From IMG/VR virus record IMGVR_UViG_2648501299_000008: a DNA stretch of 43,241 nucleotides, one strand, 5' to 3'. Made by a program: the position numbers and the translations under genes. Positions within the stretch are counted from its first letter, which is position 1. The number at the start of each line of letters is the position of its first letter. The DNA comes from a virus (Duplodnaviria; Heunggongvirae; Uroviricota; Caudoviricetes). The notes beneath the pieces are model-generated. The model ran no database searches and was not told where the DNA came from. It saw only the letters and a program-made list of their open reading frames with translations. Of the stretch, positions 972 to 37,711 are shown piece by piece.

Positions 972-1112
972 TTACCGTTCTACTGCCGGAAACTTCTTAT
1001 ACAGCGTCGACACACCCACGTCATAAAGGATCGCTACCTTCTGGCGGCTCTCACCAGCAGCAATCAGTTGCCCCATATCTTCCCATTGCTCGTCCGTGAA
1101 CTTTGGCCTACG
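972..1112 (-). pseudogene. 3' fragment of a second serine invertase gene (HTH domain only)
   Basis: Minus-strand translation gives RRPKFTDEQWEDMGQLIAAGESRQKVAILYDVGVSTLYKKFPAVER*, which parallels the C-terminus of the intact invertase at 1-549. There is no start codon and no catalytic domain upstream (an in-frame stop lies just 5'). Confidence 0.55.
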
Positions 1113-1297
1113 GTCACTATCGACTTAATGTAAAATGGGGTTGTCCCGATCGCTTCTCCGAACAGCCCTCTTCATCACTGAGTGACACATCGTTGATAAT
1201 GGATTGTTAACAGTGGTTGTTATCGTCTGGTAAGCGCATACAATAAGATGATATTATAGCTAAATGTGCATTCAAAATTCAGATTTAGAGGTAAATC

Positions 1298-2284
1298 GTG
1301 GGTTATTTTAGATTTGCTTTATGTATCGCAGTTGCAGCAAACCACCTATGGTTTATTGGAGCAATAGGTAGATATGCTGTTTTTTCATTTTATATATTGA
1401 GTGGTTTTTTAATGACCACTATTATTACGGGAAAATATGGAACAAGTGCTAAAGGCATTATAAGTTACATAGCAAATAGAGTTCTCAGAATATACCCGAT
1501 GTACATCGCTGTTTTTTTATTGTATGTTTTATTAGCGCTTCTGTGGGGCAACACTCCGGCATTAGATTTTAATATCCCTGCCACACTGAAAGGCTGGGTG
1601 ATAAATGCATCGATGATTGGCATGGACTTTAACTACAAAGACAGGCTGATATCTCCGGCATGGTCTTTATACGTTGAGCTGTTTTATTATTGCTTGATCC
1701 CATTTATAATAATAATGGGAAGAAGGGCGGTGTTATTATGGCTAGTGATGTCAGCTTCCTATCATGCATACAGTGTGTATTCACTTGGTATGTATAGTAG
1801 TTGGGATGTTAGATACGGGACAATACTTGCGGGTTCCATTGGGTTTTCTATTGGTTGCGCTTTAAAGTTGTATAACTTTAAAATAATTGAAAATAAATAC
1901 ATTTTCAAATTGTCTTTTGTAACACTAACTTTGGTGTATGGTTTAACAGCAGCATCATTCCTTTCTAAAGAAAGGTTGTTTTCTTTAGATTCTATGTCAA
2001 CATATTTCTTTTATGTAAACATGCTGGCATCAGCAGTTGTTATCAAAAATATATTTAATATAAAACAAAATAATACCTGTTTACTTTTAGGTGATCTCTC
2101 ATACCCATTCTATTTAACTCATACTTTATCTGGTGTTATCCTTATGAGGATTGGAATTATAGAAACCCGGAGTATTTATCTGTTTGTTTTTGGCGTCCTG
2201 CTTACATGTGGGATATGCATGCTCCTTAGAAGGTTTGAAATTGCGATTGATTCAATAAGAGATCGAGTGCGTTCCTACGCCTAA
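1298..2284 (+). CDS. acyltransferase family 3 integral membrane protein (Oac/OafA-like O-antigen acetyltransferase)
   Basis: 328-aa polytopic membrane protein with GTG start and AGAGGT Shine-Dalgarno 6 nt upstream. Carries the FYILSGFLMT motif typical of acyltransferase_3. Region looks AT-rich by eye and is on the strand opposite the tail genes. Confidence 0.7.
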   Translation: MGYFRFALCIAVAANHLWFIGAIGRYAVFSFYILSGFLMTTIITGKYGTSAKGIISYIANRVLRIYPMYIAVFLLYVLLALLWGNTPALDFNIPATLKGWVINASMIGMDFNYKDRLISPAWSLYVELFYYCLIPFIIIMGRRAVLLWLVMSASYHAYSVYSLGMYSSWDVRYGTILAGSIGFSIGCALKLYNFKIIENKYIFKLSFVTLTLVYGLTAASFLSKERLFSLDSMSTYFFYVNMLASAVVIKNIFNIKQNNTCLLLGDLSYPFYLTHTLSGVILMRIGIIETRSIYLFVFGVLLTCGICMLLRRFEIAIDSIRDRVRSYA

Positions 2285-2537: not shown

Positions 2538-3514
2538 GCATACTCCATAATAATAATGACACCGGGCGCGCCGTTACCACCAGCTTTCCCAGCACCACTA
2601 GAGCCAGAAAACGCGCCGCTACCGCCAGACCCGTAACCTGCACCATTGTTGCCTACCACGGACAGACTCCCTCCTGAACCGACATGGTTACCGCCAGAAC
2701 CCAGAGGATTACCACCTCCTCTACCTGAAAGCCCAGTCCCGATAGCTAAACCCTGGCCGCCCGCTTCACCATCAATGGAAACTATATTTGCGCCAGTGCA
2801 CGGCGCTGTTTTTGTCTGAATTGACTGGCATACGCTTGGAACTGTAAATGAGTTAGACGCCAGACCACTGCTGCCGCCAGGGCAGGTCATTATTGTGCCA
2901 AAAATAGTGTCTCCACCTGCACCACCGATATTGGCACCAGTACTGGATGCTGAACCTGTCCCACCATTCCCACCAGCACCAATAGTTACTGATATCGGCC
3001 CTGTAATCGTGAACTTAGTCTCACCATACGATCCAGAGTTTCCACCCGCAGCTGACGACACCTGCCCAGATGGTGGTGTCGAACTCCCACCACCACCTGC
3101 ACCACCACCGACTCCACGTCCAATGCCAAATTTTGCCCCAGGTGTTGGGGTATACATTCCCGATGAGGTGATAACTTTCACGCCCACTAAACGTCCAACC
3201 GTTGACGACCCAAGCCCTCCTACTAATTGAAGGTTTGTGAGAGCCGTAGAAATCGCCGCTGCACCATCTGATTTGATATCGGCAAATGGGTTTGCACGGC
3301 TCAGTGTGAGTTTTTGAATGGCTTTTAAAACCTGAGTCATATCGTTAATGTCGAGCGCCAATCCTGCTGACTCTACGATATGCGCTAACTCTTCCTGCAT
3401 GGCATTAAACGCTGCTGCCCGCAGCCTCGTTGCGGCAATACCACCAGCAACACTTCCATCAGTATATTTGCCATCCTGCGTTGCAGTGGCTTCGACTTGC
3501 CCGATTCGGAGCAT
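2534..3514 (-). CDS. tail fibre protein, glycine-rich
   Basis: 326 aa; conserved-looking N-terminal attachment region followed by long Gly/Ser/Thr-rich repeats. GAGGA Shine-Dalgarno before the ATG at 3514. Sits distal to the baseplate genes. Confidence 0.7.
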   Translation of the reverse strand: MLRIGQVEATATQDGKYTDGSVAGGIAATRLRAAAFNAMQEELAHIVESAGLALDINDMTQVLKAIQKLTLSRANPFADIKSDGAAAISTALTNLQLVGGLGSSTVGRLVGVKVITSSGMYTPTPGAKFGIGRGVGGGAGGGGSSTPPSGQVSSAAGGNSGSYGETKFTITGPISVTIGAGGNGGTGSASSTGANIGGAGGDTIFGTIMTCPGGSSGLASNSFTVPSVCQSIQTKTAPCTGANIVSIDGEAGGQGLAIGTGLSGRGGGNPLGSGGNHVGSGGSLSVVGNNGAGYGSGGSGAFSGSSGAGKAGGNGAPGVIIIMEYA

Positions 3515-3565
3515 AGTTAATCCTCACTTAGTGTTAAGCGATAAAATCAGAGGGGGAAATATCAG

Positions 3566-4159
3566 TTATGAATAATTGAAAATGATGTTCAGATGGGATG
3601 GGGCAATTTTGTTGATTGAACACTCCAGTTGTTTATTGCCCCACGATGCGAGCGGATCTCCGCAGTAGGACGCGCCAGCAAGCGAATACTTGATCGTTGT
3701 TTGTGGCGCATTTATCCGCCAGGTAAATGGCCACTCGTCACCGTTAAGCGCATCACCGCATACTGACATGCCACTCATAGCGGGCCGGAACTGTGTGATA
3801 GTGATGGTATAACCAAGAGCTGCAGCCACCCGGATGTAATAATCGCGGTTCAGGCCGCCGGTGCTGATTAACTTTGCCACCACGGCGCGCTGGCGATCGC
3901 TGACGCCACCGGATTCACCAATCCCACAATCATCTGGTAACCCCAGAGAGCTTTCCCATTCTGACAACATTACCGTCGCTGTAGGGGGAAAAGCACCAGT
4001 AATCAGGCTTTGCGCATCGTTGTCAGAACGCTGAAACGCGCTGCCCAGTGCCCGTAATACCGCAGCCTGTACCGTTCTTTGCGACCGGGGCCACGCCCTG
4101 CCCGTCGGTAGCAGCGCACCAAGCGCACCGGCATAATCATTTTTTGAAAAGAGGCTCAT
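3566..4159 (-). CDS. tail protein, YmfQ/DUF2313-like (Mu gp48-like)
   Basis: 197 aa; gene order baseplate J -> this gene -> tail fibre, as in e14 and Mu-like tails. Start overlaps the upstream stop. Confidence 0.7.
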   Translation of the reverse strand: MSLFSKNDYAGALGALLPTGRAWPRSQRTVQAAVLRALGSAFQRSDNDAQSLITGAFPPTATVMLSEWESSLGLPDDCGIGESGGVSDRQRAVVAKLISTGGLNRDYYIRVAAALGYTITITQFRPAMSGMSVCGDALNGDEWPFTWRINAPQTTIKYSLAGASYCGDPLASWGNKQLECSINKIAPSHLNIIFNYS

Positions 4160-6318: not shown

Positions 6319-7400
6319 GTATTGAATCCCGCCAGGTTCTGGTAGAAGGCATATGGCTGAACGGAGAATGCTTCAGGCGGCATCAGCGTCATGCGTGCAT
6401 GGGTGCCGTAGTCATCGCGCATATAGGTGACTTCTGCCAGTAGCAATTCAGTCTTCGGCAACCGTAAGGTGGGAAGATCAACGGGGATCAATGTGTTTGG
6501 TTCCCACAGTTTCCCGTCTTTATCCCGCCAGGAATCGATGGTTACCGAGAGCTGTTTTGAACGTCCGTACCGCCGGTTCATTTCCCAGTCGATCGCACTT
6601 TGTGCCTGTTGAGTAGCCATCAGGGTACTTTCCACAATCGATATATGTTTTCGGTACCGCATGCGGGCGGCCTCCGGATCTCTCGCCGTTGCCAGAGTCA
6701 CAGCGTCATAGGCCGTATCAGGCGAATACCCTGCAATTGGAGAAACGCTCATTGATACACCGACATAATCTGAAAACCTGTCAGCCATCGATTTGCGGTA
6801 GTATGCCTGCTCGACATTTACCCCTTCGGCTATCCCACTTGCCGCACGACGTGTTCCCACCCGGGTCAGTAACAGGTTTCCATCGGGCTGATCGTAGTAA
6901 AGCAGAGCAGACCATCTGGCCACCCGATCGATGACTTCTTGCGGAGACTCACCCCAGTTCAGAGTGAACTGGGGTACCTTCACAAGTTCATCAACATCCG
7001 TGGTTACGGTGATGCCGTAGTAGGATGCCAGGCGAGAAGCAATTTCAAGCGCATTACTGGCATTGATGACGTTGTTAGGCCACTCGGCTGAGCAATCCAC
7101 CAGGTCCTGACATTTGCTCCTGCCCGTGGCGCGGACCTCATGGCGGGAGCGCGATAGTGCGGGTTCCCAGTCATCAACATATCCCGTCAGTGTCAGATCA
7201 TCTCCGATACGAACTTCACAAGACATTCCCTCTTCAACGAGTTGACGATCTTCGTTGCCAGGGAAGTAATCCATTAGCCCAAGATCGAAATCAGAGGGAA
7301 AACGCTCAATACCCCGCGTTACCCGGACAGAATCCCACCCCTCGATGATTTTGCCGTCGACCGTCAAAGAAACAACATCCAGATCGCTGTCTGCATTCAT
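6315..7400 (-). CDS. tail/baseplate hub protein (Mu gp44 / P2 gpD-like)
   Basis: 361 aa between the DNA-circulation-like gene and the spike gene. Assignment by synteny and size. Confidence 0.6.
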   Translation of the reverse strand: MNADSDLDVVSLTVDGKIIEGWDSVRVTRGIERFPSDFDLGLMDYFPGNEDRQLVEEGMSCEVRIGDDLTLTGYVDDWEPALSRSRHEVRATGRSKCQDLVDCSAEWPNNVINASNALEIASRLASYYGITVTTDVDELVKVPQFTLNWGESPQEVIDRVARWSALLYYDQPDGNLLLTRVGTRRAASGIAEGVNVEQAYYRKSMADRFSDYVGVSMSVSPIAGYSPDTAYDAVTLATARDPEAARMRYRKHISIVESTLMATQQAQSAIDWEMNRRYGRSKQLSVTIDSWRDKDGKLWEPNTLIPVDLPTLRLPKTELLLAEVTYMRDDYGTHARMTLMPPEAFSVQPYAFYQNLAGFNT

Positions 7401-8800
7401 TGCCTCAGTACCTTCATGGTTGTCGGCATAAACGCCGGATGCGGTACGCGCGCTTCCTGTACCAGTTCATCTGCACGGGTGGCATCCTGGTATAATCGGT
7501 TTGCCAGCGTCAGCGCCGGAAGCGGCTGAGCGGTAGTAACCTGCAGAAGCTCGCTCAGACCAGAAGCACGCTCACTCATCGTAGAAAGGAATGCCGATCT
7601 GACGGCGAGAAGCGCGTTATACATATCATCGTCTGCGCGGTCTCCAGCCAGAACCAGCGCCGTATCAAGTTGCACAGAAACTCGTTGAGTTAACTCTTCT
7701 GCCTCGTCTGTACTGGCTGGTCTGGAGTCCGCAGCGGCACTGGTCATGGCACCAGTACATAGCACAACAATCAGCGTGTTCATGGTCGCCGAAATCGCTT
7801 TGCTGCTGTCGGACTGCTGGTACTCCGTGCTGATTGAATTAGCCAGTTTTTCCAGCGCTGTGATTCGGTCATTAACGCTGCCGGCGCTGTTAAGAATTGC
7901 GTTTACCACGTCGGCGACGCCCTGGACAAACTCATCAGGTGTGTTGGAGCTGCTAAGCTGGCTCGACCTGTCGGTAACATTTTTCCGGTCCATTACCGAC
8001 TGGGCTGTTACCTTGTCAGCCAGTGCTCTCTCATCATCCACATCAGCAACTGACGATTTGCCAGCAACAGCAGAGGAACTACCGCCCACAGAGCCTTTAC
8101 TGTAACGTCCGTACCGGGTATTCCCGAACGTGGAGTTCAGGACATTGCTGAGATTCGTGACCTGACTGATGGTGCTGTCAACCATGTTAGTCCAGAACGT
8201 GACCGTGCCTCTGATGGTGTTTATAGCCTGTGTGACACCGCGGATTTCACTCTTAACTCTGGCAATCGTGCTCAGCACAGCAGTGCTGACCAGTTTCAGA
8301 TAGTTGGTTTTCACCGTGGCGCCTGCAACGGTACTGCCCGTGACAGCAAACACTTTAAGCCCTGATTCAATTGCCATCAGGGTAAATTCAAATACTCGCC
8401 CGTTCTCCATCGAACCGGAAATACGCAAACCATTCTCAGGGATGGAAACCGTTAATTCGCCCAGTGTCGGATGGACAAGCGTACCGCTACCTTTTTGTTC
8501 ACAGGCTTCAATCAGTGACTGGCGCTGCGTGATAGCATCGCCGCCGCCGTAAACCTGGCTGTTCTGGATCAAGAAACCGCGAATAACAAATCGCCGTGTT
8601 GCCCGCCCGATATCCTCTATCCAGGCTGTATCACGGTAGGGATATTCATGTACCGCCTGGCGTCGGCCGTGGCTCCCTTCCTCAGCAACAATTGCAAATG
8701 GCACACCTCTGAATGAGCTGGGCCGTAACTGCCCCTGCCAGTCATCGCTGGTATCTCCCCCCAAAAGAGAAGTTATTGCGTCCTGGATAATTGACGGCAT
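7397..8800 (-). CDS. Mu gp43-like DNA circulation protein
   Basis: About 467 aa from the ATG at 8798-8800, with GGAGG 4 nt upstream. Lies directly downstream of the tape measure region as in Mu-like tails. Confidence 0.65.
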   Translation of the reverse strand: MPSIIQDAITSLLGGDTSDDWQGQLRPSSFRGVPFAIVAEEGSHGRRQAVHEYPYRDTAWIEDIGRATRRFVIRGFLIQNSQVYGGGDAITQRQSLIEACEQKGSGTLVHPTLGELTVSIPENGLRISGSMENGRVFEFTLMAIESGLKVFAVTGSTVAGATVKTNYLKLVSTAVLSTIARVKSEIRGVTQAINTIRGTVTFWTNMVDSTISQVTNLSNVLNSTFGNTRYGRYSKGSVGGSSSAVAGKSSVADVDDERALADKVTAQSVMDRKNVTDRSSQLSSSNTPDEFVQGVADVVNAILNSAGSVNDRITALEKLANSISTEYQQSDSSKAISATMNTLIVVLCTGAMTSAAADSRPASTDEAEELTQRVSVQLDTALVLAGDRADDDMYNALLAVRSAFLSTMSERASGLSELLQVTTAQPLPALTLANRLYQDATRADELVQEARVPHPAFMPTTMKVLRQ

Positions 8801-8809
8801 CACGCCTCC

Positions 8810-8839
8810 GGAAATAAAAAAACCGCCATGTCGGCGGTT
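8810..8839 (-). terminator. rho-independent terminator inside the tail operon
   Basis: Minus-strand transcript forms AACCGCC-gacat-GGCGGTT followed by UUUUUAUUUCC. Lies directly upstream of the gp43-like start. Confidence 0.55.
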
Positions 8840-8863
8840 TACATATGCACTGAAATGACTTAT

Positions 8864-9112
8864 CTATTTATCGCTGGATCCATTACGGTCAAGAGATTCG
8901 GCGATCCTGTAAAGATGCTCAGTCGCCTTGAATGAGTTCATTAGGAACTCATAAAGCACACGTAAAAGCAATGCACTTACCACCGATATCGTAATCGCCG
9001 TGAAATTCATTGAGACAACAGAAAAAACGAGGAAAATGCCAATTACCAGGTAAACAAGCGCAAAAACCTTTGGAGTCTAAATGGCTTTTGCTCCAAAAAC
9101 TTTTTCATTCAT
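8864..9112 (-). pseudogene. small hydrophobic protein ORF interrupted by an in-frame amber codon
   Basis: AAGGAAG Shine-Dalgarno, then ATG at 9110-9112, 11 codons (MNEKVFGAKAI), TAG at 9077-9079, then 70 in-frame codons encoding two predicted transmembrane helices, stop at 8864-8866. Confidence 0.4.
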
Positions 9113-9143
9113 AACTTCTTCCTTAACGAAATGACGACAGTGA

Positions 9144-11072
9144 TCAGTAATTCATGGCCGTTGTTATTCTGCCATTATTTTCCGCATTATAGGTTTTTCG
9201 CTCACCCTTATCATTAACCATTGTGATTTCGAGCTTAAGTGGTTGTTCTGACATTGCCTCTTTAAGAGACTTAGCCAGATTGTCGCCGAGTACACTTTCA
9301 TCACTTTTCTTACCCGTATCACTCAGAATGATGGATTCCCGATTTCTGTTCTGCGAGCCTGAGAGAATATCAGTTTCATCACTCGGGTTACTAAGAGTGC
9401 TGGAGTCACGATTTCCAGTTTGCGAACCTGAGATAATGTCATACCGCTGCTGGGCCAGCACATCCGGATTTCTCTTCCCTGACCACCGATCATCAGTAAT
9501 GGCGGTCTGGATGGCGTTTAGCAGTTGTTCCTCAGTATAAGGTTGTGCGCCATTCTCATGTTTAATCATGGCTGCCATTATCGTTTTTAATGTTTCCGGA
9601 TCGTGCAGATTTACTTGCTCTTTGGCTCCATATCCAGTGGCTTTTGAGACGGAGTCAATATATGCACGAGTATTATTCTCTGATTGCGGAGCATAGGTAT
9701 GAATAATCCCATCCAGAGTATTATTCCCCCTGTCACCATACAACATCAGCTGTCTCGCCATTGCAGTTCTTCCGTCGGCATCATTCGCAAAGGTAGAAAA
9801 TCCGCCATTTTTACCCGTTGCGTTTGCTGCAACTCTCAAATTACCGGGATTATTATTTCTGAAGCCAATTGCGTTATTCCTTGTTTCCCCGTAAGGAACA
9901 TTGCCGCGTGCAACGTTGGATTGTGGCTGGCTGATAGCGGATAAGTCATTCTGCAATTGAATCGCAGAATCGGTCGCGCGGTAATTCGCATCGTACCGCT
10001 TTCTTACAGCATCAGTCATGAAACCCGCGTCAACCTGCCCACGTTCACTGCGGGGTAAGCTGTTATAAAGTTCCTTATCGTTCTGAATGCGCCGTAGTTT
10101 CTCAGCATCATTGCTGTTGATAAAACCGAGAGCATGAGACAGCCCAGTAAAATCACCATTAGTGAACAGATCGGTAACACCTTCAAGGCCGTCTTTGACT
10201 GAACCATCCGAAAGAATGGTCTTAAGTGCCTTGTTTTTTGAACGTTGCCACAGACCATCCCAGGATGCGCTGAGCTCATTCATAGTGCCGTTCACTTCAC
10301 TCAATTGCTGATTTAGTGCCGGATCCACAGTCAGACCAAATTCATCCGATTTCGCCAGCAGCTTTTTCATGCGCTCACCGTCACGCATTAGCGCCAGCAA
10401 TTCGGGCGTCAGCCCAAGTGCATCAGCGGCGGACTTCTGCTGTTCAGGTCGCAAGGTTGGAAAAATTTTTGCGATAGACTCCAGTGTTTTAAGGGTATTT
10501 ACTGAACCATCGCTGTTTTTTTGGATTTGAGCACCAATTTGCGCCATCGCTGCCATAACCCCCTCGTTTTTACCACTGGCAGCCTCATTGAATGCTTTGA
10601 AAATACCTTCTATTGATGCATTAGCGCTCTCGCTGTCTGCCCCAAGAATACGCATTGCCCCGGAAAGTCGGGTAAAATCGTCAACGCGCATTCCCGCATT
10701 TTTTGCCGAGACATCAAGATTATAGGCCTGACGGGATGCCTCCCGAAATCCATAAGCGACCTGTTTCAGTCCGTAGCCGGCAGCACCGGCTAACCCCAGC
10801 GCCCCCATCTTCCCCGTGAGCTCCCCCACCATTTTCAGAGGGGGAACCATGTCGCCAATAAACTGCACGTTATCCCGCGCGCTCTTCGACATATTCTCGA
10901 GGCGAGAAATAAAACCGCTCAGTCCGTCGGCTGTTTCCTGACCGCCTAACTTGAGCCCTTCTTTAGTTTTATCTAGCTTCGGCTCCAGGTCACGGACAGC
11001 CTCATTAATGCGGTCTATAGCCTCGCTAACCTGGTCGCTGGCCACCAGCTCAAAATCAAAAGAATTACTCAT
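9144..11072 (-). CDS. tail tape measure protein
   Basis: 642 aa, Ala/Gly/Leu-rich helical N-terminal half. Sits downstream of the frameshifted chaperone and upstream of the baseplate genes. Confidence 0.8.
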   Translation of the reverse strand: MSNSFDFELVASDQVSEAIDRINEAVRDLEPKLDKTKEGLKLGGQETADGLSGFISRLENMSKSARDNVQFIGDMVPPLKMVGELTGKMGALGLAGAAGYGLKQVAYGFREASRQAYNLDVSAKNAGMRVDDFTRLSGAMRILGADSESANASIEGIFKAFNEAASGKNEGVMAAMAQIGAQIQKNSDGSVNTLKTLESIAKIFPTLRPEQQKSAADALGLTPELLALMRDGERMKKLLAKSDEFGLTVDPALNQQLSEVNGTMNELSASWDGLWQRSKNKALKTILSDGSVKDGLEGVTDLFTNGDFTGLSHALGFINSNDAEKLRRIQNDKELYNSLPRSERGQVDAGFMTDAVRKRYDANYRATDSAIQLQNDLSAISQPQSNVARGNVPYGETRNNAIGFRNNNPGNLRVAANATGKNGGFSTFANDADGRTAMARQLMLYGDRGNNTLDGIIHTYAPQSENNTRAYIDSVSKATGYGAKEQVNLHDPETLKTIMAAMIKHENGAQPYTEEQLLNAIQTAITDDRWSGKRNPDVLAQQRYDIISGSQTGNRDSSTLSNPSDETDILSGSQNRNRESIILSDTGKKSDESVLGDNLAKSLKEAMSEQPLKLEITMVNDKGERKTYNAENNGRITTAMNY

Positions 11073-11235
11073 CGTCTTCAGGTTTCCTAAGCTTGTTTAT
11101 CCGGGATGCCTGCGCCACCCACCATTTCAGCCGGGCGCGGGTCATTCCCCACGCCCTGTCCTCAGACCAGCGGAAATAGAAGGTGACGTCAGCGGCCATT
11201 TCCTGCCAGGTTGTCAGGGCTTCCAGGTCAAAAAA
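11065..11235 (-). other. -1 programmed frameshift extension of the tail assembly chaperone (slippery heptamer at 11229-11235)
   Basis: Minus-strand T-TTT-TTG in X-XXY-YYZ register. The -1 frame then stays open for 55 codons and stops at TAA (11065-11067) overlapping the tape measure ATG. Predicted fusion product about 142 aa. Confidence 0.55.
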
Positions 11236-11492
11236 CTGAGCAGATACTCCTCACACTTACGGAAGTCGAGAAAATCCATCGGCTGCAGTACGCTTTCACG
11301 CGTACCGGAAACCAGCGCAATAAGCAGGCGCATCGCCGCGAGCGACGTTGACGCAGCCTGTTTCTCGTAAAACTGCTCAGCCTGGCTTAGCGTGGGTGCT
11401 TTCAGCTCCAGCTGCGTATAAGTGGTCTTCTCCGCAGCATCATCCAGCGCTACGGTTAATGGAATGGTTTTAACGCGTTCAATCTCAGCCAT
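11214..11492 (-). CDS. tail assembly chaperone (short, in-frame product)
   Basis: 92 aa between the tube gene and the tape measure gene. Ends ...LSFLTWKP with a slippery TTTTTTG 18 nt before the stop. Confidence 0.7.
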   Translation of the reverse strand: MAEIERVKTIPLTVALDDAAEKTTYTQLELKAPTLSQAEQFYEKQAASTSLAAMRLLIALVSGTRESVLQPMDFLDFRKCEEYLLSFLTWKP

Positions 11493-25154: not shown

Positions 25155-25772
25155 TCATACCAGTGCGGCTTTTGCTTTGGCGTAGCGTGCACGACGGTCG
25201 TTAATGCCGTTCTGTCCACCATTGATGATCTGGGTGATGCGAACCAGATCGCCGGAATAGCTCAGGCATCCGCTGGTGGCGTAGAACCATGCAGCTGAAC
25301 GTGCCGCGTTGATATCCTTTTCCAGCAACTCAGGATTACTGACTAAATCCAGTTTTAATCCCGTTCCGCAGCGGCGGTAATTATCAAGACCGGTAATCTG
25401 AATCAGCCCACGGCCACGATATTTCCACCCATCGCCTGATGCTTTGTTACCGAGGCGATTGCTGTACACCAGATTTGCAATGGCTGGCTGATTGGCTACG
25501 TGCCCTTTTTCTTTGTCACGCCCAAGCATATATGCCTGATAGTTCGTAATGCGGCGTCCAAATGTGGTCAGCAGAGCGGCTGGGGTGTAGTTGAAGCTCT
25601 CCACCAGCGCAGAGAATCCCGCTGATTCATGTCCTGACTGAGCAATAAACATTGCCTGGTCTTCAGGCTTAACAATGCCGAACTCTTTCATTGCCGCGTC
25701 AATGTGCGGAAACCAGCGCGTAGCTAACCCGGCGCTTACACCAGCCGCCTGTTGAAATTGTGATTGGTTCAT
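25155..25772 (-). CDS. endolysin, glycoside hydrolase family 19 (chitinase-like lysozyme)
   Basis: 205 aa; lysozyme/chitinase-like sequence in the lysis cassette position. Start overlaps the preceding membrane protein stop (TAATG). Confidence 0.8.
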   Translation of the reverse strand: MNQSQFQQAAGVSAGLATRWFPHIDAAMKEFGIVKPEDQAMFIAQSGHESAGFSALVESFNYTPAALLTTFGRRITNYQAYMLGRDKEKGHVANQPAIANLVYSNRLGNKASGDGWKYRGRGLIQITGLDNYRRCGTGLKLDLVSNPELLEKDINAARSAAWFYATSGCLSYSGDLVRITQIINGGQNGINDRRARYAKAKAALV

Positions 25773-26053
25773 TAATGCCTCAGCGTATCAACGAGACGCG
25801 CCACATTCCCACGAGCCCATAACACGGCAGCGCAAATAAGAAGGTTTACGATGACCACCATCCAGTGTGACTCCTGGTAGAGGCCGAACAGATATCGGAA
25901 TGGAACGCTGGCATAAACCAGCACAACGAAGTACGCCAGCAATGATATAGCGGGGCGATGTCTTGCCCCTTCACGCTGGTAGAACATCAGGACAAGGACG
26001 ATGACCGCACAAATACCTGCATTCACCATCGCTGACGGATCACTTGTTACCAT
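25772..26053 (-). CDS. holin-like small membrane protein
   Basis: 93 aa from the ATG at 26051-26053 with GGAGGAGGGG just upstream; two or three predicted transmembrane segments. Confidence 0.5.
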   Translation of the reverse strand: MVTSDPSAMVNAGICAVIVLVLMFYQREGARHRPAISLLAYFVVLVYASVPFRYLFGLYQESHWMVVIVNLLICAAVLWARGNVARLVDTLRH

Positions 26054-26435
26054 TGCTGGCCCCTCCTCCACGGAATCGCGAAAGAATACTGAACAGGCTT
26101 CCCAAATCCTGACTGTTGAAAAATGTGAGCACTTTGATTGTCATCGCCGCCACTACAACAGCACCAAGTGCGTCTAATGGTCTGTCACTATACCCGGTAG
26201 CCTGTGACAGCTTTGAACCCACCAGTCCAGCGGCAAGAACGCCAACAATGAATGACGTCATGAAGTAAGCAATCAATCGTACTCGTGTGATATTTGCCGC
26301 TGTCGCTACATAAAATACTGCACCAGCGAATGCGCCAAATACCACGCCATAATCAATACCGGTTGCAAGACCAAATACGCTGGCTCCCATCAGGCCACCA
26401 GCCGCGACCGTAGTGCCAGAAACAGGATCGGACAT
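26040..26435 (-). CDS. holin-like membrane protein
   Basis: 131 aa with several Gly/Ala-rich hydrophobic segments; first gene of the lysis cassette. Confidence 0.5.
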   Translation of the reverse strand: MSDPVSGTTVAAGGLMGASVFGLATGIDYGVVFGAFAGAVFYVATAANITRVRLIAYFMTSFIVGVLAAGLVGSKLSQATGYSDRPLDALGAVVVAAMTIKVLTFFNSQDLGSLFSILSRFRGGGASNGNK

Positions 26436-27909: not shown

Positions 27910-27936
27910 ACAAAAAACCCGCTCGATGGCGGGTTC
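27910..27936 (-). terminator. strong rho-independent terminator just downstream of the Q-like gene
   Basis: Minus-strand AACCCGC-catcga-GCGGGTT followed by UUUUUUG. Confidence 0.6.
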
Positions 27937-28000
27937 TTAATTCTTTGTCGACCTACGAAGCTATGGCGACGATATCAGATTTACATGAAATATATGCGTT

Positions 28001-28690
28001 TCAATCCAGTTTTGCAAGACTTGAGTCTAAATTTGTCGCCTTTTGTTGTGAACGTGATCGCGTAACCTGCAATAAAGCCCCGCTATCCAGTCGCAGGAAG
28101 ATGCTGCGCATCTCAACCCAGCGGTCAGTAAAGGTCTCTGACCAGTTTTTTGGCGTTACGCCAACCAGCGACGCCAGCGCCTGATATTCGTACATCTCAC
28201 GCCCTGCCAGCTCTGCTTTCACGTCCTGAGCCGCGAGCCAGACAAGCTTCTTCAGGCGCTCCATCGTTTTGCCGGCCACCTTCTTCGCGCCGAGCTGCTC
28301 CCGGAACTCTGCCCACGCCCATTGAGTGATTTCCACCTGATAGCACCAGCGCACGTTCTCGCTATAGTTCCATAGCAGCCACGCTTTCTGGTGTTCTTCG
28401 AGTGACATCAGTGCGCGGCGCCACGATGCGCTGGAGTATTCAACCGGCTGCACCAGGGGAATATGCGAACCCTTGGCATGCGACTGCTTGCCCGGTATTG
28501 GCGGGTTATCCAGCGTAATCATTTCCCCGGTCACTTCATCCAGCACTCGAGGCTTTTTACGTTTAAACGTTCCCGTATCGAACTGCGCGTTTTCAAGCCA
28601 CGCCATCAACTGCCCTTTCGTCGCACCACTTAAATCGGCGGTGGCCACCATCAACTGCTGGCGCACGTATTCGAGAAATTGAGTATTCAT
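28001..28690 (-). CDS. late-gene antiterminator Q-like protein
   Basis: 229 aa immediately downstream of ylcG and rusA and upstream of the terminators, promoter and lysis genes. Assignment by synteny and size more than sequence. Confidence 0.5.
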   Translation of the reverse strand: MNTQFLEYVRQQLMVATADLSGATKGQLMAWLENAQFDTGTFKRKKPRVLDEVTGEMITLDNPPIPGKQSHAKGSHIPLVQPVEYSSASWRRALMSLEEHQKAWLLWNYSENVRWCYQVEITQWAWAEFREQLGAKKVAGKTMERLKKLVWLAAQDVKAELAGREMYEYQALASLVGVTPKNWSETFTDRWVEMRSIFLRLDSGALLQVTRSRSQQKATNLDSSLAKLD

Positions 28691-31731: not shown

Positions 31732-31823
31732 GGAGGGTTGGCCGAGTGGTTGATGGCACCTCACTGATAATGAGGCGTACGGGCTATAAACCCGTACCGC
31801 GGGTTCGAACCCCGCACCCTATT
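31732..31823 (+). tRNA. tRNA-like element, class-II (long variable arm) architecture, anticodon GAU; probably degenerate
   Basis: Hand fold: acceptor GGAGGGT/ACCCTAT (5 Watson-Crick pairs, one G-U, one G-A mismatch); 3-bp D stem GCC/GGC with GAGTGGTTGAT loop; anticodon stem CCTCA/TGAGG with loop CTGATAA; 23-nt variable arm with 7-bp stem; T arm GCGGG-TTCGAAC-CCCGC; no encoded CCA. Confidence 0.45.
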
Positions 31824-37367: not shown

Positions 37368-37392
37368 ACCGGCATTATGCCGGTTTTCATAT
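37367..37392 (+). terminator. rho-independent terminator closing the cI-side operon
   Basis: ACCGGCA-tta-TGCCGGT stem at 37368-37384 followed by TTTCATATT; starts at the stop codon of the membrane protein gene. Confidence 0.6.
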
Positions 37393-37711
37393 TCCTTTTC
37401 TCACCATAGCAGTGACATCCCACAACACTCCTTTGTGAATCACATTTCCAACCGCGCGACGCTTAGTCTCCAAGCTATCTACTATCGCATCTCGACTTAT
37501 CACCACACCGTTGATTATCTACTCGACAACTGCACCGCCAATCTCGCCAGCCATGAAAGCAGCGCGATCTTCCAGCAGCTCATCACGTGACATATCCATT
37601 CCTAAACCCATATCAATATCCCCGCCTGGTGTTTTTTTGAGCATATCACGCATCTCATACAAAAATAAATCACTTTATAAATCAAATAAAAATCGGCAAA
37701 ATCACAATATT

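Follow-up and report, generated by a model that had tools for sequence, protein, structure and literature searches.

The stretch of DNA considered here, the window, is the IMG/VR virus record IMGVR_UViG_2648501299_000008 in its full length of 43,241 nucleotides (nt), which is 100% identical to positions 2607262-2650502 of the E. coli 2018-10-1CC genome (NZ_AP021894.1). It represents a prophage that combines a lambdoid early region (RecET, CI/Cro-like regulators, Q antiterminator) with lambda-like head genes and a Mu-like contractile tail. Between the genes for the tape-measure protein (TMP) and a Mu gp43-like DNA-circularization protein lies a small open reading frame (ORF) that is interrupted by an in-frame amber codon and followed by a strong hairpin. 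The Prokaryotic Genome Annotation Pipeline (PGAP) leaves the whole interval blank (8801-9143, 343 base pairs (bp)), the small ORF included. This locus is read here, with a probability of roughly 70%, as a moron-type cassette consisting of a Shine-Dalgarno sequence, a small ORF and an intrinsic terminator, in which the ORF has become a W12* pseudogene of DUF4282-like identity.

Anatomy of the locus

The small ORF and the tail genes around it are encoded on the minus strand. In the direction of transcription, the features are as follows:

9144-11072, minus strand: TMP gene, 642 amino acids (aa); matches phrog_2276 (E 1e-155), phrog_873 and phrog_7182
9186-9214, minus strand: promoter-like site ATGATA-17-TATAAT (10/12), within the 3' end of the TMP gene and ~75 nt 5' of the small ORF's ATG; candidate only
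9128-9135, minus strand: 8-bp direct repeat GTCATTTC, left copy, at one boundary of a 276-bp indel (from the empty-site comparison)
9118-9124, minus strand: Shine-Dalgarno sequence AAGGAAG, 5 nt 5' of the ATG at 9112 and 9 nt 5' of an overlapping ATG in the +1 frame
8864-9112, minus strand: pseudogene of an 82-codon DUF4282-like/phrog_12129 small membrane protein (from translation, homologues and phrog_12129 match)
9112-9110, minus strand: start ATG of the small ORF, with 11 sense codons (MNEKVFGAKAI)
9106-9108, minus strand: second ATG in the +1 frame (ATGAATGAAA); in the TAG + T6 allele, an 81-aa ORF begins here that avoids the TAG and returns to the main frame
9077-9079, minus strand: in-frame amber codon 12 (W12*); TGG in relatives and TAT in a derived allele (haplotypes 9078A>G, 9077G>T)
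9062-9066, minus strand: T5 run; its T5-to-T6 insertion is the frame-restoring mutation in L012-L015 and L046
8864-9010, minus strand: residual 48-codon ORF from Met35 (second and C-terminal helix only), without Shine-Dalgarno sequence; sometimes picked by gene callers (P0011)
8852-8859, minus strand: 8-bp direct repeat GTCATTTC, right copy, at the other boundary of this 276-bp indel (from the empty-site comparison)
8811-8840, minus strand: intrinsic terminator with a 9-bp stem (AAACCGCCG/TGGCGGTTT) and a T-run behind it, immediately 5' of the gp43-like Shine-Dalgarno sequence GGAGG
7397-8800, minus strand: DNA-circularization (Mu gp43-like) gene, directly downstream; PF07157 (E 2.8e-30) and PGAP annotation

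The ATG of the small ORF is located 31 nt after the TMP stop. Past the amber codon, the frame continues for 70 codons (TPKVFALVYLVIGIFLVFSVVSMNFTAITISVVSALLLRVLYEFLMNSFKATEHLYRIAESLDRNGSSDK) up to a TAG at 8866-8864, and 23 nt beyond this final stop follows the terminator, a hairpin with a 9-bp stem rich in guanine and cytosine (GC) at 8840-8820 with a T7 run. The original prediction, which was made from the letters of the sequence, had described precisely this succession of Shine-Dalgarno sequence, ATG, 11 codons, TAG, 70 codons and terminator between a tape-measure and a gp43-like gene; every element was recovered on the minus strand, and the phrog_2276 and PF07157 matches identify the flanking genes as those that had been named. 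The two hydrophobic helices that it had proposed are likewise supported, as Kyte-Doolittle analysis places hydrophobic stretches at residues ~16-34 and ~37-58, and AlphaFold2 folds an intact homologue into a helical hairpin (residues 3-34 and 37-76) with a predicted local distance difference test score of 81, both in agreement with a membrane hairpin.

Homologues and family assignment

Homologues were sought with the restored, i.e. amber-repaired, window protein. This yielded 16 clusters of 56-96% identity from Enterobacter, E. coli and Citrobacter, in which intact proteins measure 79-83 aa and every examined locus lies between the same TMP and DNA-circularization genes. Comparison with related prophages, proposed at the outset as a check, has thus turned up intact versions in the same slot, and the ORF is conserved there with a coding signature. 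Between the window and the Citrobacter copy, the proportions of non-synonymous (pN) and synonymous (pS) differences are 0.26 and 0.80, respectively, the latter being saturated, and the protein sequence of the C-terminal segment LRVLYEFLMSSFK(A/S)TEHLYRIAE does not vary amid numerous synonymous changes. Hence, the intact gene is real and under purifying selection, with conservation strongest in the soluble C-terminal helix rather than in the transmembrane (TM) segments.

The restored protein matches phrog_12129, a family of unknown function, with E 4.6e-11 (residues 6-77 on profile positions 2-77 of 79), and full-length matches to this profile were obtained for all members (E 1e-11 to 1e-13 for the others). 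Weak matches to Pfam DUF4282 are found in every close family member (19-27 bits), with P0012 at 27.1 bits. A scan of IMG/VR revealed a second group at 31-38% identity, whose members start with MFGFDKLITPKI... and contain ...NNEYLRRIAE(A/S)LE. These cousins qualify as genuine DUF4282 proteins, with full-length matches of 32-42 bits, and PGAP names them as such in 191 complete E. coli genomes. As the motifs ITPKI..Y, LRVLxE and RIAE(S/A)L are common to the window ORF and the cousins, and intermediates connect the two, the window ORF can be placed as a probable divergent branch of DUF4282. This branch is small, with 24 clusters at 50% identity in 1.8 billion representatives, and the family as a whole occurs in ~200 of 5,426 complete E. 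coli genomes (191 with a cousin, 22 with the window type). A blastn search with the locus against 50,697 phage records gave no match, and tblastn against the phage records retrieved only Edwardsiella phage GF-2 (33% identity). Foldseek searches of the AlphaFold2 model against BFVD and PDB returned generic helical hairpins only, none at E<=0.001. A PADLOC hit to Csx18 (E 0.0029), obtained for P0009 alone, was treated as chance.

Origin and alleles of the amber codon

Codon 12 encodes Trp in nearly all homologues (AKAIWTPK) and Leu (CTA) in Citrobacter. Since the DNA alignment has TGG at this position in the relatives, the amber codon is most simply a plain G>A nonsense mutation, W12*, that turned TGG into TAG. 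A sequencing error can be dismissed, because the same base recurs in most of the complete E. coli genomes and IMG/VR contigs that carry the locus. The IMG/VR census, which was taken with a pattern independent of codon 12, covered 31 close loci, and the alleles are distributed as follows:

TAG allele: 21/22 complete E. coli genomes; 25/31 close IMG/VR loci
TAT allele: 1/22 complete E. coli genomes (NCTC9040, annotated as intact, WP_023157309.1); 3/31 IMG/VR loci
TGG allele: 0/22 complete E. coli genomes; 2/31 IMG/VR loci
TAG allele with an extra T: 0/22 complete E. coli genomes; 1/31 IMG/VR loci

The TAG allele is found on two different TMP 3' backgrounds. Of the suggestion that the ORF is a recently inactivated small membrane protein, the inactivation is therefore upheld by the TGG of the relatives, while "recently" has become doubtful, given that TAG is widespread and has reached two TMP backgrounds.

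The central haplotype is the one with TAG, from which F27Y and F27C (both at nucleotide 9033), T64S, a stop-loss, TAT and the extra T are derived. The stop-loss (8866 T>C) is present in L035 and L049. Codon 27 (9033, minus strand) is tri-allelic in close relatives, with TTC (Phe), TAC (Tyr) and TGC (Cys); Tyr is seen on both TGG (L044, P0005) and TAG backgrounds, which results from either recurrent mutation or recombination. The same two options apply to TAT (W12Y), which occurs on both TMP backgrounds next to TAG counterparts that differ only at 9077 (L002/L017 and L018).

A further allele keeps the TAG and avoids it. With six instead of five T residues in the T-run, the frame that opens at the ATG 9108-9106 and uses the same Shine-Dalgarno sequence reads MKKFLEQKPFRLQRF and rejoins the main frame, which affords a product of 81 aa with both helices (P0006). 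This T6 allele was found on 19 contigs (E. cloacae and metagenomes) and in L046. Frameshifting by -1 on the T-run was considered as well, but the heptamer is non-canonical.

If substitutions struck the ORF at random, only ~1% of them would abolish the stop, whereas one or two such removals plus a bypass were seen among ~6 mutations. This difference hints at selection to regain the protein. Yet the sample is small, the direction of change may conceivably have been TAT>TAG, and the stop-loss alleles rather point to neutral decay. A test for relaxed selection in the TAG lineage was without power; its four changes are non-synonymous or stop-loss, and the two differences between intact alleles are also non-synonymous.

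A mobile cassette and its terminator

This gp43-like allele is present in 32 complete E. coli genomes, of which 22 carry the ORF, whereas the match of the other 10 begins only at the hairpin. Three of these ten were inspected (AW1.7, ECCWS199, OW1E2) and have a TMP-gp43 spacer of 68 nt without the ORF. The empty site reads TGATCATTTTCAACTGTCATT directly joined to GTATATACGGTAACCGCC, and the filled site carries GTCATTTC at both junctions, so that the two differ by a clean 276-bp indel. About one 8-mer repeat within ~350 nt is expected by chance according to our own estimate, and only the position of the repeat at the junctions is meaningful. The GC content drops to 0.36-0.44 over 8800-9300, in comparison with 0.52-0.57 in the gp43-like gene, and this decrease reaches into the TMP gene at its 3' end. 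Over 5 kb, AW1.7 and ECONIH4 are essentially identical save for two TMP blocks, the second of which starts ~500 nt before the TMP stop, runs through the ORF and ends exactly at the hairpin. Hence, the ~170 C-terminal codons of the TMP gene co-vary with the small ORF as one mosaic block.

The family is encountered in several unrelated slots. Its genes follow three TMP families (phrog_2276 in the window, phrog_2013 in GF-2 and phrog_1538 in L088), and further members reside in a baseplate cluster between hub and spike genes, or next to the terminase, between it and the early genes. In GF-2, the ORF starts 1 nt after the stop of a TMP-like "lytic tail protein", and in L088 it stands right after an unrelated 865-aa TMP. 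Cousins possess clearer promoter-like elements than the window copy: pre-terminase cassettes share a conserved TTGAA(A/G)-17-TA(A/G)GAT element and a 5' untranslated region, and the L052 type has TTGTTG-16-TATAAT. The promoter-like site of the window is kept in TMP alleles that come with the ORF; it is weaker in Citrobacter and missing from AW1.7. Three sister prophages with an empty site, the low GC content and the presence of the family in several phage slots together bear out the view of the ORF as a moron within the tail operon. In L047, whose small protein is 62% identical, an additional 194-aa ORF (3344-3928) without Pfam or PHROG match is placed between the TMP gene and the DUF4282-like gene, which makes for a two-gene insert at this same position.

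Ten family representatives from at least five genomic contexts were examined (window type, Citrobacter L009, L047, GF-2, L052 in the baseplate cluster, L050 and L086 ahead of the terminase, L075, L084 and L088), and all 10 have a strong GC hairpin with a T6-7 run 1-100 nt past their stop codon. As a background, the same lenient scan finds such a site after 9 of the 49 minus-strand genes of the window. In Citrobacter L009, the hairpin differs by compensatory changes. A first view, derived from insert-less relatives, held that the hairpin is not the ORF's own; it was overturned by the terminators behind every member in unrelated slots. In the end, the ORF may thus be credited with its own terminator, as had been proposed, with the caveat that the hairpin is also present at empty sites. 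Given this frequency relative to the background, gene and terminator appear to travel together as a unit that moves between phage backbones, and the most economical reading of the empty sites is a secondary loss of the ORF between the 8-bp repeats that left the terminator behind.

Several points weigh against this interpretation of the locus as a DUF4282-like moron cassette. The hairpin in insert-less relatives is identical, and the ORF could have been inserted upstream of a pre-existing terminator. The promoter candidate of the window lies in the TMP gene, i.e. outside the 276-bp indel, and does not exceed shuffle expectation. No promoter was detected for the GF-2 and L088 genes, which abut a TMP stop, an arrangement that fits a late accessory as well as a lysogenic role. 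The null allele predominates and empty sites exist, which marks the gene as dispensable in many hosts. With respect to identity, the restored window protein scores 23.8 bits for DUF4282, under the Pfam gathering threshold of 27. No meaningful PADLOC, NCBIfam or PDB sequence match was obtained for the family, DUF4282 is mentioned in no paper, and no annotated homologue carries a function.

The TMP gene shows mosaicism of its own. Compared with L004, from a sister prophage that is otherwise ~100% identical, TMP residues ~85-290 and the last ~170 are swapped blocks, with 41-85% nucleotide identity in these parts. A third TMP variant, the EM18 type, has 26 differing sites within 9198-9296. In addition, TMP residues ~393-525 (~9498-9896, minus strand) form an embedded endolysin/transglycosylase-like domain (phrog_873, phrog_7182; motif FRNNNPGNLR), and it is the GF-2 counterpart of this domain-bearing TMP that is annotated as "lytic tail protein".

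Possible function and alternative explanations

The anatomy of the locus, its homology, the nonsense origin of the stop, the moron behaviour and the allele series are matters of observation: the ORF is a pseudogenised copy of a conserved mobile cassette that is inherited together with the C-terminal block of the TMP gene. The intact gene would probably encode an 82-aa helical hairpin in the inner membrane with both termini inside, in which TM1 (~16-34) is followed by TM2 (~37-58), and TM2 would run on into a conserved cytoplasmic helix (LRVLYEFLMsSFKaTEHLYRIAE). The copy in the window is presumably dead, as it should yield only the 11-residue peptide and at best a poorly initiated 48-aa fragment, with the terminator still intact. 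Judging from lambdoid biology, Q-antiterminated late transcription should pass both the untranslated stretch and the terminator, and the premature stop would hence be without polar cost for the baseplate genes; this would also account for the tolerance of a terminator within the late operon. In the lysogen, the same terminator would insulate the baseplate genes from transcription of the moron.

As for the role of the intact protein, the leading, though tentative, candidate is a superinfection-exclusion-type inner-membrane factor directed against the TMP-mediated DNA entry of related phages. This idea is drawn by analogy with small inner-membrane proteins of other phages (see below). The recurrence of DUF4282 genes directly after three TMP families would fit such a link to exclusion, and it would equally fit an accessory of the TMP that acts late. 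Members far from any TMP as well as the frequent null and empty alleles argue against an essential structural role.

A late function constitutes the main alternative. Instead of a moron for lysogenic conversion, the gene may encode a tail or ejection accessory that is co-translated with the TMP during lytic growth and acts together with its C-terminus or transglycosylase domain, for example by shielding the producer from its own or progeny tails or by aiding TMP handling at the membrane. The short distance to the TMP stop and the strong Shine-Dalgarno sequence in the window, the even closer arrangements in GF-2 and L088, the co-variation with the C-terminal mosaic block of the TMP and the lack of a convincing own promoter in these three contexts would all be in line with this proposal. 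However, other members are found away from any TMP, either between early genes and terminase behind a promoter-like element or between baseplate hub and spike, the gene is always insulated by a terminator, and it is dispensable, as seen from the widespread TAG null allele and from empty sites in near-identical, apparently intact tail modules. A late accessory is thus considered unlikely.

Conceivably, the gene toggles. In this quite unlikely scenario, a costly but protective protein, such as a TMP-specific block of DNA entry, would be repeatedly lost and regained as a contingency gene. Loss would proceed via W12* or via deletion of the ORF between the 8-bp repeats, and regain via TAG>TAT, as on the two TMP backgrounds, or via the 1-nt insertion that recruits the overlapping out-of-frame ATG. 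If true, the family would represent new, widespread TMP-linked exclusion factors under fluctuating selection.

It is very improbable that the intact protein is a holin-like or toxin-like, membrane-permeabilising two-TM effector of lysis or abortive infection that was inactivated because of its toxicity. Its size and hairpin topology resemble class II holins, and frequent null alleles would be compatible with a cost of expression. Yet no holin, toxin or defence family was matched in Pfam, PHROGs or PADLOC, the family gene was never found in a lysis cassette, and conservation peaks in the soluble C-terminal helix instead of the TM segments. Moreover, the prophage already possesses a complete lysis cassette at 25155-26435, with two holin-family genes and a GH19 endolysin (PGAP).

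Finally, it is barely credible that the amber codon serves as a regulated or leaky stop that lets a dose-sensitive membrane protein through at low levels or that relies on suppression by the host. In favour of this idea, TAG is by far the commonest E. coli allele and is present on two TMP backgrounds, and the same prophage contains another small ORF interrupted by a TAG in frame. However, codon 12 is an ordinary Trp codon or Leu in homologues, no suppressor tRNA was found in the window (its only tRNA is a tRNA-Ile(GAT); host-encoded suppressors lay outside the search) and the TAG lineage decays further through a stop-loss and otherwise only non-synonymous changes. In the restored alleles, the TAG is exchanged or circumvented instead of being kept, and the amber-regulated gene that the original prediction had offered as its second option was accordingly abandoned.

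The second interrupted ORF (37387-37593, minus strand) has its TAG at codon 25 (GAG TAG ATA, 37521-37519) and is annotated by PGAP as "hypothetical protein, internal stop"; this TAG is fixed in 5/5 complete E. coli genomes with that allele. Another, different TAG-interrupted small ORF is present in the ECONIH4 relative (L089 44874-45113). Nonsense codons arise most commonly through G:C>A:T transitions at TGG and CAG. Since TAG is the expected product of these transitions, two TAGs in one prophage are unremarkable, and the other interrupted ORFs are treated as coincidence.

Taken together, the locus as it stands amounts to a commonplace nonsense pseudogene, derived from an uncharacterised accessory gene of prophages, and its value is mainly one of annotation: a DUF4282-like moron pseudogene with its terminator can now be entered for the 343 bp that PGAP leaves blank. 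Beyond this, it provides a modest lead, in that a terminator-bearing DUF4282 membrane protein recurs after three TMP families and at other moron hot spots, and the natural null and re-opened alleles offer a cheap and well-controlled entry to the function of DUF4282. Should exclusion at the stage of DNA entry prove to be true, the family would add a common, unrecognised prophage defence.

Further features of the prophage

28001-28690, minus strand: Q antiterminator gene (PGAP annotation; role from lambdoid biology)

Just downstream of the Q gene, where the late promoter/terminator region would be located, there is a full-length Rfam match to the Hfq-binding small RNA isrJ (27913-27985, minus strand; 58.7 bits, gathering threshold 37). 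The tRNA-Ile(GAT) mentioned above is unusually long (92 nt; 31732-31823, plus strand), is called by ARAGORN, Rfam and PGAP and is encoded on the strand opposite to the surrounding early genes. A 44-codon ORF (11065-11199, minus strand) occupies the 141-nt gap between the tail assembly chaperone gene (11214-11492) and the TMP start. It is probably a programmed-frameshift extension of the chaperone and is predicted as a separate gene by some callers in the relatives L005, L006 and L013. One end of the prophage (1-2205) harbors a truncated integrase fragment (1-483), a DinI-like gene and a 72-nt capsid-gene fragment (790-861) as well as an acyltransferase-family gene (1036-2205, plus strand) that adjoins the tail-fibre genes and is likely an O-antigen-modifying moron. 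Taken as a whole, these elements point to past rearrangement.

Comparison with known systems

Imm of phage T4 is a small two-TM inner-membrane protein that blocks DNA injection, and it is similar to the window family in size and predicted two-helix topology. The likeness is one of analogy, as Imm was not matched in Pfam (E<=1), PHROGs or PADLOC. Furthermore, T4 is virulent and its imm gene is no tail-operon moron, unlike the window ORF.

With respect to genomic position, HK97 gp15 comes closer. According to its authors' commentary, this superinfection-exclusion moron is encoded next to the TMP gene, and the specificity of exclusion depends on the tail region of the incoming phage (PMC3594210). 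Like the predicted product of the window family, gp15 is a small inner-membrane moron protein encoded in the tail operon of a temperate E. coli phage, beside the TMP gene. Nevertheless, there is no sequence kinship between the YebO-related gp15 and the window ORF (no YebO among the Pfam matches at E<=1). In addition, gp15 lies upstream of the TMP gene, whereas the window ORF lies downstream and is an inactive copy, for which a role in exclusion is proposed by analogy only.

The architecture agrees well with the classical lambdoid morons, i.e. bor and lom of lambda and those of HK97 and HK022. As in these cases, extra DNA of lower GC content is placed between genes that are adjacent in relatives, with a terminator directly 3' and inside a Q-antiterminated late operon. 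The window copy differs from them in that its promoter is a candidate only and in that the left mosaic boundary reaches into the TMP C-terminus.

The closest relationship is that to Pfam DUF4282 (PF14110) and phrog_12129, with which the window family has in common the length (~77-83 aa), the two-TM hairpin and the motifs (F/I)TPK(I/V)..Y near the N-terminus and LRVLxE...FK..E.L.RIAE near the C-terminus. The DUF4282 cousins likewise form prophage cassettes with their own terminator. In contrast to DUF4282 proper, the window copy and its close relatives score at or below the threshold (19-27 bits), and the window copy is a nonsense pseudogene. The feature in the window is a defective new member of a catalogued but uncharacterised family.

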